The notes beneath the pieces are model-generated. The model worked only from the letters and a program-made list of their open reading frames with translations. It ran no database searches and was not told where the DNA came from. Both the position numbers and the translations under genes were made by a program. Below are positions 5,672 to 61,263 of a stretch of DNA of 64,000 nt, in pieces. Within the stretch, counting starts at the first letter, position 1. Each line of letters begins with the position of its first letter. This DNA is from Octopus vulgaris. Taxonomy: Eukaryota. Location of the stretch: positions 5,456,001 to 5,520,000 of the forward strand of contig OX597824.1 in assembly GCA_951406725.2 (NCBI GenBank), written 5' to 3'.

Positions 5672-5991
5672 TTGCAGCGTGGAAGGTGTTTATAAGCCAT
5701 TTAAGAAACACACAAAAACCGTTAGATTCACCTCAACATTTAAATTAAATTTGTCAAAAACCGTTAGATTCACTTCAACATTTAAATTTAATTCGTCAAA
5801 ATATTTTCGTCGCTTTGAGGCCGCGACTTCTTCACTGACAAAGTTGTGATGCAGCACAGAGTTTCGTCAGTGAACAGGTCGCGGACTCAAAGTGACGAAA
5901 ATATTTTGACGAATTAAATTTAAATGTTGAAGTGAATTTAACGGTTATTGTGTGTTTCTTAAATGGCTTATAAACACCTTCCACGCTGCAA
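5672..5991. repeat. Long inverted repeat element (hammerhead motif in both arms)
   Basis: Arms 5672-5842 and about 5862-5991; left arm has an extra 42-bp tandem duplication. Confidence 0.9.
5863..5913 (+). ncRNA. Hammerhead-fold motif with G3:C8 variant core
   Basis: UUCGUCA-GUGAACA-G-GUCGC-loop-GUGAC-GAA-AAUAUU-U-UGACGAA: 7-bp stem I, 5-bp stem II, palindromic stem III; inverted copy on minus strand 5792-5842. Confidence 0.7.
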
Positions 5992-15439: not shown

Positions 15440-15725
15440 GTGCGTGTGAGTATTTGTGTGTGTGTTTGTATGTGTGTGTGTAAAGAAGGCAGTGAAAACT
15501 TGGATTTTATATGTACCCTTGACTGCTGCAGTGAAGGTCCTTGTTAAAGATAGGCACTAGTGTTTTTGGTGACCGGTATGTAGCAAAACTTTTAAGTCAT
15601 TTCAGCCATTTAGTGTATATATATATATATATATATAATAAATATATAGGGAATGAATCCAAAATTACAGGGAAAAATCAGATTTAGGGTTAAATCCAAT
15701 TTTATAGTAAAATATTATATAATAT

Positions 15726-15968
15726 AATTCGAGACAAAACCACTATTTTAAAATCAAACAAGGAAAGACTTAATCAATACATAACATTTTAATATAAATT
15801 AAATAAACCGCCACTACAATTGTTTCCTGTCCTCTACTGACATTCTTCAGGTGGATTTTCGATCTTCTAATCAGTATCAAATTAGGTTTATTTAATTTAT
15901 ATTAAAATTTTATGTATTGATTAAGTCTTTCCTTGTTTGATTTTAAAATAGTGGTTTTGTCTCGAATT
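15726..15968. repeat. Inverted repeat element in (TA)n, hammerhead in spacer
   Basis: 84-bp near-perfect arms 15726-15809 / 15885-15968. Confidence 0.9.
15811..15854 (-). ncRNA. Minimal type I hammerhead ribozyme
   Basis: Minus strand CCAC-CUGAAGA-A-UGUC-aguagag-GACA-G-GAAAC-AAUU-GUA-GUGG; stem I CCAC/GUGG, palindromic stem III ACAAUUGU. Confidence 0.85.
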
Positions 15969-15969
15969 T

Positions 15970-16018
<49 letters not shown>

Positions 16019-18397: not shown

Positions 18398-18783
<386 letters not shown>

Positions 18784-18785
<2 letters not shown>

Positions 18786-19427
18786 ACGACTCCTTCCTTC
18801 AAACGGGAAGGAAGAGCTATTTTGTGGCTATGGCGAAATAATGTATCTGGTGGACGCGTCTGAAAGGATTGGAGACAAACACTTTCCTCTCTGGTCAATC
18901 TCTCATCAACTTCTTCAAGTACCACTTGAAAAGGAAAGTGAGAGTAGAGAGGCAAGTTTTGTCTAGCGAATGTTTTAAAAAAAGATGGGTGAATGTAGCA
19001 AGAATGGCACGTATGAATGACGAAGCCACCTTGAGCATAGTCCTATGAACCCAGAAATCGAAAACAGAGAGTTGCTTATTTGCAAAAAAAAAAAAAAAAG
19101 AAATATAAAATGTGACATCATTGACCGAGGTTACCGTGGTCTTTTCCGTAGGCTTTTCTTTGCACGGGTAAACCTCACCTGTCCTCCCCTTTACACTTCA
19201 TATTGACATTTCTGTGATAACGATCCCTATTGATCAATTTTTTTTCCTCCTCCTTTTTTTTAAACCCCCCTTTTTTTGTCCTCTTTCTCTCCTTTTACGA
19301 TCCCTTTTGATCGAAACTCCCCCTTCCTTTTTTTTTTTTTTTTTTTCTTAAACCTTCAAAAGAAAAGCTCTACCTTGTAATTTGTTCTATCTGTGTGCAG
19401 CCCTGTGTGGCTAATAAAGAAACAAAC
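18784..19427 (+). mobile_element. Second, shorter copy of the same LINE 3' end
   Basis: Near-identical to 19763-20415 with an ~11-bp deletion; flanked by (TATC)n/(TACC)n. Confidence 0.85.
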
Positions 19428-19428
19428 A

Positions 19429-19502
<74 letters not shown>

Positions 19503-19567
19503 CCTACCTACCTACCTACCTACCTATCTACCTACCTACCTACCTACCTACCTACCTACCTACCTAC

Positions 19568-19660
<93 letters not shown>

Positions 19661-19661
<1 letters not shown>

Positions 19662-20415
19662 CGTTCAGTGTCCAACAATTTCCGACCTGTGGGCTTATGT
19701 CGAACAACTGCTGTCACGTGTGGGACGAGTCGGTTTATCAGCTGAGTCTATCGTCAATATTGTCACGCCTCCTTCCTTCAAACGGGAAGGAAGAGCTATT
19801 TTCATCATCCTTGTGGCTATGGCGAAAGAATGTATCTGGTGGACGCGTCTGAAAGGATTGGAGACAAACACTTTCCTCTCTGGTCAATCTCTCATCAACT
19901 TCTTCAAGTACCACTTGAAAAGGAAAGTGAGAGTAGAGAGGCAAGTTTTGTCTAGCGAATGTTTTAAAAAAAGATGGGTGAATGTAGCAAGAATGGCACG
20001 TATGAATGACGAAGCCACCTTGAGCATAGTCCTATGAACCCAGAAATCGAAAACAGAGAGTTGCTTATTTGCAAAAAAAAAAAAAAAAGAAAATATAAAA
20101 TTTGACTTCATTGACCGAGGTTACCGTGGTCTTTTCCGTAGGCTTTTCTTTCCACGGGTAAACCTCACCTGTCCTTCCCTTTACACTTCATATTGACATT
20201 TCTGTGATAACGATCCCTATTGATCAATTTTTTTTTCCTCTCCCCCTTTTTTTTTAACCCCCTTTTTTTTGTCCTCTTTCTCTCCTTTTACGATCCCTTT
20301 TGATCGAAACTCCCCCTCCCTTTTTTTTTTTTTTTTTTTTTAAACCTTCAAAAGAAAAGCTCTACCTTGTAATTTGTTCTATCTGTGTGCAGCCCTGTGT
20401 GGCTAATAAAGAAAC
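19661..20415 (+). mobile_element. 5'-truncated Tx1/L1-clade LINE 3' end in (TATC)n
   Basis: Open ORF2 C-terminus [17 protein letters not shown]...AKECIWWTR...FKKRW...* (stop 20035-20037), pyrimidine-rich 3'UTR, AATAAA, then (TATC)n. Confidence 0.8.
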
Positions 20416-20416
20416 A

Positions 20417-20505
<89 letters not shown>

Positions 20506-23091: not shown

Positions 23092-23281
23092 GTGTGTATA
23101 TATTCTGTCTTCTTTCTTTTCCTTCCTCCTTAATATAATGCATGTTCTTCAAAATATCCTACCCTGATGTTGTCCATTTAAAAACGCAATAAATAAAAAA
23201 ATAAAAAACAAACAAACTGCGGGAACTTAGTTGCCAACCCAATGTATATGTATATATATATGTAAATATGTATATATGTAA

Positions 23282-23344
<63 letters not shown>

Positions 23345-23346
<2 letters not shown>

Positions 23347-24087
23347 GTATTTTTGTGGTTGAAACCTTTGGATTAACTGGTGCTAGAGTGAGCCATATAG
23401 TGACCACTCTCTTATATTTATTTTGTAAAAATATTATAATATATTATAAAATATTATAATAATACAGGTTTCTCGGAGCACTAGGCCACTTGGTGTTGAA
23501 TAGATATACTATTAAATTAGTATCTAATACTCTCACCCTTATTAATTGATTATAATTATGCTGCATTTATTTCTAAATGCTGTATTTGTTTTCCGTGAAA
23601 GTTTGGCGCGCTGTTAGTTGGGGCATTTGAATTATAACGTCGGATGTAATCAATTGAATCACACGCGTATTTATCGTTATGGTAAAATCTGGCGTGTGAT
23701 TGAGTGGATTTCATCCAGATAGTTTTGGCTGACGAGCTACAAGTGGATTTTTTTGTAAGTAAAATTACATTTAATTCATTAATAGCGAAACAATTGTCCC
23801 AAAATAATCTGTATTTTTGTTATTTTTTATTTGCCCTGTCCGTGTGAGCTAACAATCGTACTGACTTTCATGGGAAACATGTATTTTTGTGGTTGAAACC
23901 TTTGATTAACTGGTGCTAGAGTGAGCCATATAGTGACCACTCTCTTATATTTATTTTGTAAAAATATTATAATATATTATAAAATATTATAATAATCCAG
24001 GTTTCTCGGAGCACTAGGCCACTTGGTGTTGAATAGATATACTATTAAATTAGTATCTAATTCTCTCACCCTTATTAATTAATTATA
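23345..24087 (+). mobile_element. Partial-tandem (pLTR-like) hammerhead-bearing element, Penelope/retrozyme-like
   Basis: ~210-bp direct repeats 23345-23554 and 23879-24087 (period 534), hammerhead between them, (TA)n on both sides, no ORF. Confidence 0.75.
23723..23804 (+). ncRNA. Type I hammerhead ribozyme (intact core)
   Basis: Stem I UUUUGG/CCAAAA, core CUGACGA (23729-23735), stem II GCUA/UAGC around a 43-nt loop, GAAA (23787-23790), palindromic stem III ACAAUUGU, cleavage triplet GUC (23796-23798). Confidence 0.9.
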
Positions 24088-24603
24088 TATATATATATAT
24101 ATTTGTAAGGTGGTTCATTTTATCAGCAGATACACAAATGTACCGGTTTAAGTTTGACAGGTTATTTCGTATTGGAATTCTTTTGCCACAAAAGTGATTC
24201 TCTTGGAACGGATTAAAGGAATTTTCTGTCACTGCTTATCTTAATATGTCGGTATCCATAACGTACGTAATTGCATATATACGTGTGGCTAAGCTCTTAT
24301 CTTTGCATGTATGTCTTTTGTGCGTATTTGTGTTGGTCGCTGTGCGTATATATCGGTGAGTGGTCATGTGAGTATTTACTGTTTGTTACGTCATTGCTTT
24401 CTCATTTTTTTTAAAATACGGATGACACCGCTTATTGCAGTATTATCGATTGACATATCCGTCGCAATGGTCATGCGTGTGGCTGTCAACTAAACTGAAT
24501 TTAATTCATGGCGATGTCACCATTACATAATTGGCAGTGATTACGAGTGTGGATATTACCGTCTTTTCATTTTCCTTTTACTTATATATATATATATATA
24601 TAT

Positions 24604-24823
24604 ATAGAATGGTTGTATACTGTCAATCTAACACGAACGTGACAGTAGGGGGTACACCACCGCTGTTTAGCCCTAGGAAGCATCGACGAGCCTCCTGATG
24701 GCTTTGACACATTTTTCCTGTGTCCTTATATACATTTACGTCGATGCTTCCTAGGGCTAAACAGCGGTGGTATACCCCCTACTGTCACGTTCACGTTAGA
24801 TTGACAGTATACAACCATTCTAT
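24604..24823. repeat. Inverted repeat element in (TA)n
   Basis: 85-bp arms 24604-24688 / 24739-24823, 50-nt spacer; no full hammerhead core found. Confidence 0.9.
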
Positions 24824-37362: not shown

Positions 37363-37514
37363 ATGTATATATGCATATATATGTAGAAATATATACATAT
37401 ATATATATACATATACATACATACATATATATACATATACATACATATATACATATAAACTTACTTGGAGAAAAGAAAAGAAACGAAACGACGCGAGGGC
37501 GCTCAGTCATACAA

Positions 37515-37913
37515 TAATTTAATAAATAAAATATAAGAATACATACATACATACATATATGTACGTACCTACATCTGCATGCATATATACATGCATATAT
37601 ATATATATATATATATATGAGTACAGGACACCACAAATAGACGTAGAACTCAACGAGAAACGAAAACATAAAAACATGGAAACGGACTTTTTTTAACAAC
37701 GAAAAAACAGAACACAGGACAAACAACACAAGGAACATTCCCCTTCATCAGCTGTCCCCGGTTCGACTCCATGCGTGTTTCGGCTGATGAAGGGGAATGT
37801 TCCTTGTGTTGTTTGTCTTCTTCTCTGTTTTTTCGTTGTTAAAAAATGTCCATTTCCATGTTTTTATGTTTTCGTTTCTCGTTGAGTTCTACGTCTATTT
37901 GTGGTGTCCTGTA

Positions 37914-37966
<53 letters not shown>

Positions 37967-38042
37967 TGATATATACATGTAGATGTAGGTACGTACATAT
38001 ATATATGTATGTATGTATGCTTATATTTTATTTATTAAATTA
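37515..38042. repeat. Long inverted repeat element
   Basis: ~240-260-bp arms 37515-37752 / 37783-38042, each including an internal (TA)n; 30-nt spacer. Confidence 0.92.
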
Positions 38043-38218
38043 TATATATATATATATATATACATATATATATACATACATCTATATACACACACACACA
38101 CGCACACACACATGCATATATATATAGGTATATATATACATATACATATATAAATGTAACTGCACATGGACTGTTAGCTATTTTCCCTTACTTTTCCTCT
38201 TTCTCTTTGGACTTTCCT

Positions 38219-40851: not shown

Positions 40852-40854
<3 letters not shown>

Positions 40855-41273
40855 TTATTTATATTACAATATTATATGAAATACTATGAATATAATATAA
40901 CATAATATAATATTGTATAACATAAATAATTATAAACACCGTAAAAGGCCAATAAATTGTTTCGACTTATATACATTTTTTCTGATTTATATAATCACAG
41001 TTCCCTTATATATAAAGTCACTTCAGGGTCAAGGACAGTTGAATTAATTTTTTCAATCCAGCCGTCTTCACACGGAATTTCGTGTTTTTCTAAACCATGA
41101 CCCTGAAGTTACTTTATATATAAGGGAACTGTGGTTATGTATATCAGAAAAATATATATAAGTCGAAACAATTTGTAGGCTTTTTATGGTTTTTATAATT
41201 ACTTATGTTATATAATATTATGTTATATATTACATTCATAGTATTTCATGTAATATTGTAATATAAATAAATT
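40852..41273. repeat. Inverted repeat element next to (CA)n
   Basis: ~178-bp diverged arms 40852-41031 / 41098-41273. Confidence 0.88.
41097..41180 (+). ncRNA. Degenerate hammerhead with extended AU-rich stem II
   Basis: CUGAAG-U-(G/U)ACUU...AAGUC-GAAAC-AAUUU-GUA-GG; A9 missing; mirrored on minus strand at 40946-41031. Confidence 0.55.
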
Positions 41274-55660: not shown

Positions 55661-55720
<60 letters not shown>

Positions 55721-55726
<6 letters not shown>

Positions 55727-56188
55727 GAGGATACTATTATTCATAGGTACCGCACGCTAGGAGGGACTTTTGCAGTCAAAACTACTAAAATAAACAAATT
55801 GTACCGAATGCAAAACTTCAAAGCAAGTAATTTAAAAACAGAATTTAGTTACATATCACCTGTGATTTCGCAATCAATGCAGAATATGCATTCTATGCTC
55901 TTCAGTGCAACGAACTCAAGACATATAAGAAAAAACACAACATCACATACCCGGCAACCAACGGTAGAATTCGCCGCAGCATGTACGAATGTTTATCTTT
56001 ACATATCTATGAAAATGGCGGGCTTTTTCGCAATGCATTTCGGTTCAACTTGCCTACTCGGAACAAAAATTCAGTATTGAACTATTCCGGTGAAAAATAT
56101 AAAATATAAATTTGTTTATTTTAGTAGTTTTGACTGCAAGAGTCCCTCCTAGCGTACGGTACCTATGAATAATAGTACCCTCTATATA
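55721..56188. repeat. Inverted repeat element in (TA)n, hammerhead in spacer
   Basis: 80-bp arms 55721-55800 / 56109-56188. Confidence 0.9.
55848..55911 (-). ncRNA. Type I hammerhead ribozyme (intact core)
   Basis: Minus strand reads GUUGCA-CUGAAGA-GCA...UGC-GAA-AUCAC-AG-GUGAU-A-UGUAAC: 6-bp stem I, stem II with internal hairpin, stem III AUCAC/GUGAU, triplet AUA. Confidence 0.88.
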
Positions 56189-56295
56189 ATATAAATAAGT
56201 ATTTTCAAAGTTGAAAAAATTTACAGATTTTTTCTCTTACGAGGGTTTTCACGCTAACTATTGATACTTTCTTATAAAGATTTTATCCTTATTTT

Positions 56296-60696: not shown

Positions 60697-61263
60697 TTGG
60701 GTTGTCCGAAAAGGTCATGCCGATTTTTAAAAGAAAGAAAAAGGTCAATAAGTACTTGCCATTACATTTTTAATCAACCAAATATGAACCATTTTGTTGC
60801 ACAATGCATCTCCATCTTTCCTTTAACTTGAAAATACCCTCTTCCCAGAATTGAGGTGGCTTTATGGCAAAGAATTCATTAAGGTACCTTTTTATGTCAT
60901 CCAAGGAATTGAAATTTTTGCCATTAAGACTATTCTGCAGAGACCTGAATAAGTGGAAATCCGAAGGAGCAATATCTGGTGAATATGGAGGGTGGGGTAA
61001 CACATCCCAGCCGAGCTGCAGCAATTTTTGTCTGATTCCCAAAGAATCAAGTGCCGAAAATGAACTTACTTTTCTTCCATTTTAAAGGGTTACATAATTA
61101 ACACAGGTTATGGGAACATAAACCTTCTTCTACGAAAAGATAGTTTAAACTGTGTTCTAAATGGAAGTGTAGTCAAATCCTATTTTATGGAATCAACCAT
61201 GTTCTAAAATAAGTCGAAAGGTAGGGCTACTATAAATCGGCAACAACTTTCCGGACAACCCAA
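60697..61263 (-). mobile_element. Mariner DNA transposon, internally deleted
   Basis: ~30-bp imperfect TIRs ttgggttgtccg.aaag / ctttccggacaacccaa, TA duplications on both sides. Confidence 0.93.
60770..61042 (-). pseudogene. Mariner transposase C-terminal fragment
   Basis: WDVLPHPPYSPDIAPSDFHLFRSLQNSL...GIFKLKERWRCIVQQNGSYL: the YSPDLAP-D motif holding the third catalytic D; N-terminus deleted. Confidence 0.92.

Follow-up and report, generated by a model that had tools for sequence, protein, structure and literature searches.

Between two (TA)n tracts in the 64,000-nt stretch of Octopus vulgaris DNA under analysis (hereafter the window) lies a 743-nt element, bounded by direct repeats and carrying a type I hammerhead motif between them. 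Its parts, together with the flanking tracts and the depth control used below, are as follows.

23245..23344, no strand: left (TA)n microsatellite (TRF array 23245-23350 and sequence)
23345..23554, plus strand: repeated part, first copy, 210 nt (direct-repeat alignment and circular fold)
23555..23878, plus strand: single-copy middle of the unit (circular fold)
23685..23864, plus strand: clustered A>G differences in the putative RNA run X7
23722..23805, plus strand: type I hammerhead motif of the dimer type, with predicted cleavage after 23798
23879..24087, plus strand: repeated part, second copy, 209 nt, i.e., the extra 0.39 turn (direct-repeat alignment)
24088..24102, no strand: right (TA)n tract (sequence)
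24112..24400, no strand: single-copy right flank, depth control (one contig each in runs X1 and X2)

Alignment of the window with itself by blastn placed the direct repeats at 23342/23345-23554 and 23876/23879-24087 (213 bp, 97.7% identity). Counted from 23345, the pair differs by three substitutions and one 1-nt indel, and the start-to-start distance is 534, or 533 past the indel. The element thus comprises 1.39 units (743/534), with a GC content of 32% for the 534-nt unit, and we confirm the description in the initial annotation of near-identical 210-nt repeats forming a 1.4-mer of a 534-nt unit between TA tracts. The left (TA)n tract is the likely insertion target. The right one is short (~10 units, about 24083-24102) and overlaps the end of the element from about 24083, so that no target duplication can be read.

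The repeats were also said to lack TG..CA ends, a primer-binding site and an open reading frame, and inspection by eye together with the frame and Pfam scans upheld this: the repeat carries a TG one base in, with neither a CA end nor a tRNA-primer-like TGG behind it, and the element contains no frame with a Pfam family, its one stop-free frame of at least 55 aa (87 aa, minus strand) being without a match. A reverse transcriptase and GIY-YIG frame is absent from the 743 nt, and a scan of 120 of the window's 208 complex frames turned up none; in these, no Pfam family exceeded threshold, the one sub-threshold match was to DUF5929, and no reverse transcriptase appeared. The element likewise holds no Pol III A box, B box or AATAAA by pattern search, no tRNA was found, and self-blast returned no second copy of the element inside the 64-kb window. 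The surroundings, non-coding DNA of an animal type, are AT-rich (GC 28-40% per 2 kb). Microsatellites abound in them (128 TRF rows), as do short interspersed repeats.

The hammerhead motif and the predicted fold of the unit

The motif at 23722-23805 comprises (i) a 7-bp helix I (23722-23728/23799-23805), (ii) the core segments CUGACGA (23729-23735) and GAAA (23787-23790), (iii) a helix II (23736-23739/23783-23786) with G10.1-C11.1 and a long extension of ~40 nt, and (iv) a 2-bp helix III, its loop being the palindrome AAUU, and a GUC triplet (palindromic stretch 23790-23797), the predicted cut falling after 23798. Block-wise dinucleotide shuffling of the whole window, repeated 200 times, yielded no equally strong hammerhead and one weaker match, and the folding z-score of 23715-23812 is -5.3. 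The motif had been introduced as a perfect, textbook GUC hammerhead. Its core letters bear this out, but helix III spans only 2 bp, the monomer is predicted to misfold, and Rfam is silent. In the lowest-energy monomer fold (-21.0 kcal/mol), the core is paired to the cleavage triplet; the active fold has -15.4 kcal/mol, so that the predicted misfold lies 5.6 kcal/mol below it. Rfam returned nothing in the window at gathering score and no hammerhead in 23200-24200 at E-values up to 10, probably because of the ~40-nt extension of helix II. Pattern scans gave no match in metagenome contigs and none in viral contigs.

As computed, two copies of the hammerhead can pair via helix III in an 8-bp duplex (-6.4 kcal/mol). 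A short palindromic helix III with cleavage as a dimer is canonical for type I hammerheads of metazoans, as described in PMC4209133, and the octopus motif shares this helix and this dimer type. Of the common DNA variants listed, a single one touches the core. It falls at N7 (23733; 28% in run X1, 3% in run X2), given as a free position of the hammerhead core in PMC4075628, and it weakens the misfold (-18.1).

Folded as a circle, the 534-nt unit has a predicted minimum free energy of -150.5 kcal/mol (z = -7.6, 66% paired), with none of 100 shuffles as low, while the antisense unit reaches -108.1, about the mean of the sense-strand shuffles. In this predicted fold, 23588-23639 pairs with 23818-23878 and encloses a hairpin at 23642-23716 along with the hammerhead, while the first repeat copy (23345..23554) forms a folding domain of its own. 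In the linear 1.4-mer, helices I and II form with a computed probability of 1.0. Eight of ten common DNA variants fit the predicted fold (~6.9 expected), which is no better than chance. An intact core that varies only at N7, together with the strand-specific fold, points to selection on an RNA.

The hammerhead is located between the repeats, hence not within the repeated part, at a distance of 289 nt from the 3' end; the locus thus has one hammerhead in 1.39 units, and two consecutive hammerhead-bearing units are absent here. With its single hammerhead outside the repeated part, the locus cannot by itself release a unit-length RNA or circle. The ~534-nt cleaved monomer or circle originally predicted from this locus does not hold up, for it would need copies of at least two units elsewhere.

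Other short elements in the window also adjoin (TA)n. At 55712-56197 (minus strand), a short element with 89-bp terminal inverted repeats, unrelated to the element at 23345-24087, contains an intact type I hammerhead (55911-55848, minus; AUA site, cut after 55854) with a near-palindromic helix III, resembling the hammerheads of Hydra-clade Penelope-like elements (PLEs). A palindromic element at 15712-15983 contains a PLE-type hammerhead (minus strand, 15854-15811) with extra bases at both helix II ends and the same helix III palindrome as in 23722-23805; this shared palindrome has two matches against 0.07 expected, and the relaxed null for intact hammerheads is 0.017 per window. Since two more intact hammerheads occur within the same 64 kb, hammerhead-bearing TA-inserted elements would be common in this genome, and the position of these two (minus 55905 and minus 15850) within TA-adjoining inverted-arm elements suggests that such machinery acts there. 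Palindromic elements at 5755-5950 and 40852-41273 hold degenerate cores with one core mismatch and, at a relaxed null of 0.6 per window, are leads only. Long inverted-repeat elements adjoin (TA)n at 37514-38043, with the 5' half of a hammerhead core near its centre, and at 24604-24823; both are possibly inverted truncated PLE-type copies. Compared with six other short elements, the element at 23345-24087 gave only patches of similarity at E 0.05-0.7.

Two further features are of other kinds. A mariner-like transposase fragment (60773-61081, minus strand) falls in a SETMAR/DDE_3 cluster at 0.95 with no Pfam match, its frame matching Eukaryota only, mostly clusters from Arthropoda. A ~1.1-kb tandem duplication (18436-19513 and 19429-20505, 88% identity) is bounded by (TATC)n and forms another partial-tandem-like arrangement in microsatellites.

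Copy number and junctions in public sequencing runs

Twenty public runs, from 10 studies and with 8 organism labels, contain at least half of the words of the element. Contigs were placed on 23555-24400, with 24069-24111 masked, for 4 of these 20 word-sharing runs, of which X1 and X2 are whole-genome-like. None of the 20 is listed as an RNA run, and X4 and X7 are taken for RNA by guess. The right flank is represented by one contig in X1 (depth 42.7) and one in X2 (depth 34.1), with 6 and 2 differences, respectively, over 289 nt; on the basis of these matches, X1 and X2 come from the same or a close species. On the element itself were placed 4,244 contigs from X1 and 2,321 from X2, of which 86% and 84%, respectively, are at least 95% alike. 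Relative to the flank, summed contig depth over 15 interior bins, a crude measure and not a copy number, was 11,700-30,000x in X1 and 5,400-42,000x in X2; division by 31, for the worst case of contig overlap, leaves 380-970 and 170-1,360. As even this overlap-corrected depth is 170-1,360 times that of the flank, the family comprises at least several hundred copies, which are young and near-identical, with a unit of 534-535 nt.

The other two runs bear on junctions. X4 yielded a single contig of 565 nt, at a depth of 15.4 and differing by one substitution and a 2-nt insertion, that runs from 23617 through both repeat boundaries to 23646; its ends overlap by 30 nt and so close a cycle of 535 nt. 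TA or TATG tracts were joined on the 5' side at 23618 in X1 and at 23816 and 23847 in X7 (3 of the 18 loose ends listed, a further 120 being outside the listing). Together with 23345 at the locus itself, this makes at least four TA-type 5' junction positions.

Some loose ends lead into other sequence. In X7, a 255-nt loose end before 23805 keeps the 3' core and the palindrome of helix III, whereas its site is GUA and its helix I strand differs; from its sequence, we regard it as a diverged sister family. A similar foreign sequence departs from the unit at one base, 23838, in both X1 and X7, thus under two organism labels, and this branch may represent a sister family or the autonomous parent. 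In X2, loose ends at 23800 and 23809 are mutual reverse complements with an overlap of ~10 bases; they likely mark a DNA transposon that inserted into another copy and left a target duplication of 9-10 bp.

Origin of the copies

On balance, we judge it probable that the locus is a dispersed 1.39-unit copy of a young, high-copy family of non-LTR retrozymes, whose circular RNA would be copied by PLE enzymes. The cycle model itself is already in print (PMC7229834; 10.64898/2026.07.22.740005), as are TA-targeting PLE clades (PMC8557442). Applied to this family, with its unit of 534-535 nt of which no part is systematically doubled, the steps would be: (i) the hammerhead-sense strand is likely transcribed, in line with the strand-biased A>G differences in X7; (ii) transcripts of loci of at least two units would pair through the palindromic helix III and cleave as hammerhead dimers; (iii) the resulting unit-length RNA would be ligated to a circle; (iv) a TA-targeting PLE protein would nick (TA)n and reverse-transcribe the circle for more than one turn; and (v) the direct repeats would thus be the mere overlap of the extra turn. 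Having one ribozyme, the 1.39-unit copy would likely be a dead end, unable to regenerate a circle except within a read-through RNA. Retrozymes are treated as PLE derivatives in 10.64898/2026.07.22.740005, with solo "monomer" offspring that cannot transpose. Since the locus carries one ribozyme and not two, we file the copy provisionally in the monomer class of a non-LTR retrozyme (non-autonomous Penelope-type) family. The initial annotation had proposed reverse transcription around a circular RNA or PLE partial-tandem formation; the existence of a family and its seemingly non-fixed boundaries fit that proposal, while the 534-nt product from this locus does not.

Animal non-LTR retrozymes were described by Cervera & de la Pena 2020 (PMC7229834). 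The octopus family shares with them (i) a small, non-coding unit of low GC (below 45%), (ii) a type I hammerhead with a palindromic helix III, (iii) high copy number, (iv) a self-paired predicted circle in which no distant complement blocks the ribozyme domain, and (v) the occurrence of solo copies. This likeness rests on sequence and predicted fold, cleavage and circle being putative in octopus. At 535 nt, the unit is larger than the 170-400 nt given for invertebrate retrozymes in PMC7229834 and within the 51-972 nt of Li, Clavereau & Pollet 2026 (10.64898/2026.07.22.740005). The locus has one ribozyme where retrozymes form tandem arrays, its helix II is extended by ~40 nt where theirs ends in a short loop, and it shows TA targeting, which the available portions of these same two sources do not describe for retrozymes. 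Against the retrozyme reading stand the predicted misfold of the monomer, the single hammerhead and the chance-level fit of the variants to the fold; by comparison, eight of nine predicted retrozyme dimers of Xenopus showed no cleavage in vitro (10.64898/2026.07.22.740005).

A second explanation, to which we assign a lesser and tentative plausibility, is that of a non-autonomous PLE copied from linear RNA. Its copies would have a fixed 3' end near 24087 and variable 5' truncation, the hammerhead would derive from the pseudo-LTR of the parent, and no circle would be involved, with the partial tandem arising by the usual PLE second round or by read-through of a tandem locus. A partial tandem, a (TA)n target and variable 5' ends, all shared by the octopus element, are indeed PLE hallmarks (PMC8557442): the Hydra, Naiad and Neptune clades target (TA)n, including Hydra-1_Obim and Naiad_Obim/Ovul of Octopus (Craig et al. 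2021, PMC8557442), Hydra PLEs also have a type I hammerhead with a palindromic helix III, and Chlamydomonas possesses non-autonomous PLEs with head-to-tail insertions (PMC8557442). All three of the listed microsatellite-type loose ends are on the 5' side. The linear explanation is also kept alive by the report that PLE insertion proceeds in vitro without hammerhead cleavage, the ribozyme being dispensable there (PMC11167929). However, the depth of the element in X1 and X2 does not rise toward the 3' end, and the X4 contig crosses 24087 unbroken, where a shared end would branch; at a depth of 15.4, this is only a hint against a shared end. Nor is the cycle proof of a circular molecule, as a family of 1.4-mers also cycles in a de Bruijn graph. 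Flat depth and the X4 cycle are compatible with arrays, circles or permuted 1-2-mers.

The element further departs from TA-targeting PLEs in its lack of a reverse transcriptase/GIY-YIG frame and in the position of its hammerhead, which lies outside the repeat at a greater distance from the 3' end than the mostly ~90-210 nt of the Hydra clade (PMC8557442) and lacks the extra base between 9 and 10.1 that is typical of PLE hammerheads. Three motifs of the element (8-14 nt), searched against a PLE consensus set restricted to Naiad, Chlamys and Hydra families, gave no relevant match: two had none, and the 8-mer had nine, unrelated among the two listed. By short motifs and by eye, the Hydra and Naiad consensuses thus do not match the element, the 3' end of Hydra-1_Obim is unlike it, and no 30-40 nt tail was recognised.

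Quite improbable, in our estimation, is a hammerhead satellite spread at the DNA level, through excised circles and rolling-circle or repair capture in fragile TA, with the RNA as a by-product. Tandem arrays would likewise give flat depth and a closed cycle, no target-site duplication is readable inside the TA, and local amplification of retrozyme units has been proposed (10.64898/2026.07.22.740005). Yet all the microsatellite junctions seen are of the TA type, as for TA-targeting PLE endonucleases, and the indications of RNA selection, from the core and the strand-specific fold, also count against a satellite.

A TRIM or plant-type LTR retrozyme, with two 210-nt LTRs and a 324-nt interior, is largely refuted and retains only a very slim chance. 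Near-identical repeats at both ends and the TG one base in are what such an element would show, and plant LTR retrozymes and TRIMs are likewise short, non-coding and hammerhead-bearing. However, they have a type III hammerhead in each LTR, a primer-binding site, a polypurine tract and 4-bp duplications, none of which is present in the octopus element, whose type I hammerhead sits in the interior and whose repeat has no CA end. An LTR pair predicts a twofold depth of the repeated part over the middle, compared with observed ratios, crude as they are, of 1.13 in X1 and 0.74 in X2; other copies begin within the interior. Fixed LTR boundaries are thus not supported, given a ratio of ~1, the 535-nt cycle and four 5' junctions. 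Finally, a hammerhead arisen by chance in a locally duplicated or wrongly assembled stretch, for which the single copy in a 64-kb window with a microsatellite-rich region might speak, is refuted: half or more of the words of the element recur in 20 runs from 10 studies at depths thousands of times that of the flank, near-identical contigs number in the thousands in X1 and X2, the junction from repeat end to middle is present in X4, and 0 of 200 shuffles contained such a hammerhead.

A>G differences over the ribozyme

In X7, the putative RNA run, A>G accounts for 23 of the places that differ from the element and T>C for 8, while A>T, C>T, G>A and T>G occur once each (A>G versus G>A, 23 to 1, p = 3e-6). 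Of the 20 A>G sites listed, 16 stay below 0.2% in X1 as well as in X2. Single contigs of 96-167 nt differ at 12-17 places, and A or U precedes the edited A in 16 of 18 cases. Among the sites are A13 (23788, 9%) and A15.1 (23790, 18%), at which mutations lower cleavage by 10-100-fold and by more than 100-fold, respectively (PMC4075628, in data that do not cover inosine). These values are from contigs only, of an organism label that differs from those of X1 and X2, and are set against DNA of other individuals; their restriction to 23685-23864 is insecure, as the 85% identity cut may drop heavily edited A-rich repeat reads. A strand bias among DNA polymorphisms (7 A/G versus 1 T/C listed) was considered and dropped, as 2-3 more T>C places were counted outside the listing.

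Clustered, strand-biased A>G is the mark of ADAR hyper-editing of repeats (PMC5625713, PMC9068888), and the editing of repeats is widespread among animals and pronounced in cephalopods. The X7 pattern is of this kind for plus-strand transcripts, so that the hammerhead-sense strand is likely transcribed, and its inclusion of A13 and A15.1 points to ADAR editing of the ribozyme. The octopus element thus shares with known cases the clustered A>G in a self-folding repeat and differs from them in that the edits hit positions of a hammerhead core. The simplest reading of the signal is ordinary repeat editing that incidentally covers the ribozyme. We consider improbable, but worth stating, the more far-reaching proposal that a 535-nt retrozyme circle exists and that ADAR editing of its core and helices would serve as an in vivo off-switch against re-cleavage, or as a means by which the host disarms it. 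According to PMC7229834, something other than self-pairing must keep the circles of animal retrozymes blocked, a point left open there, and RNA editing has already been named as a possible cause of circle heterogeneity. Our literature searches found no report of natural editing of a retrozyme core and none of a cephalopod retrozyme, subscription papers being mostly outside their scope. In the available text of the O. vulgaris repeat paper PMC13282606, ribozymes are unmentioned, and its supplement, which has no repeat library, contains none of the motifs of the element.

As it stands, the finding adds to the non-LTR retrozymes a young family whose unit is larger, whose target is TA and whose copies number at least several hundred. 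As this family is dispersed, counts of copy ends can decide between an origin from circles, for which both ends would be permuted, and linear PLE copying, for which the 3' end would be fixed. The editing signal makes the in vivo silencing of animal retrozyme ribozymes testable and, if the off-switch were true, it would answer the question raised in PMC7229834 of what blocks the circles of animal retrozymes.
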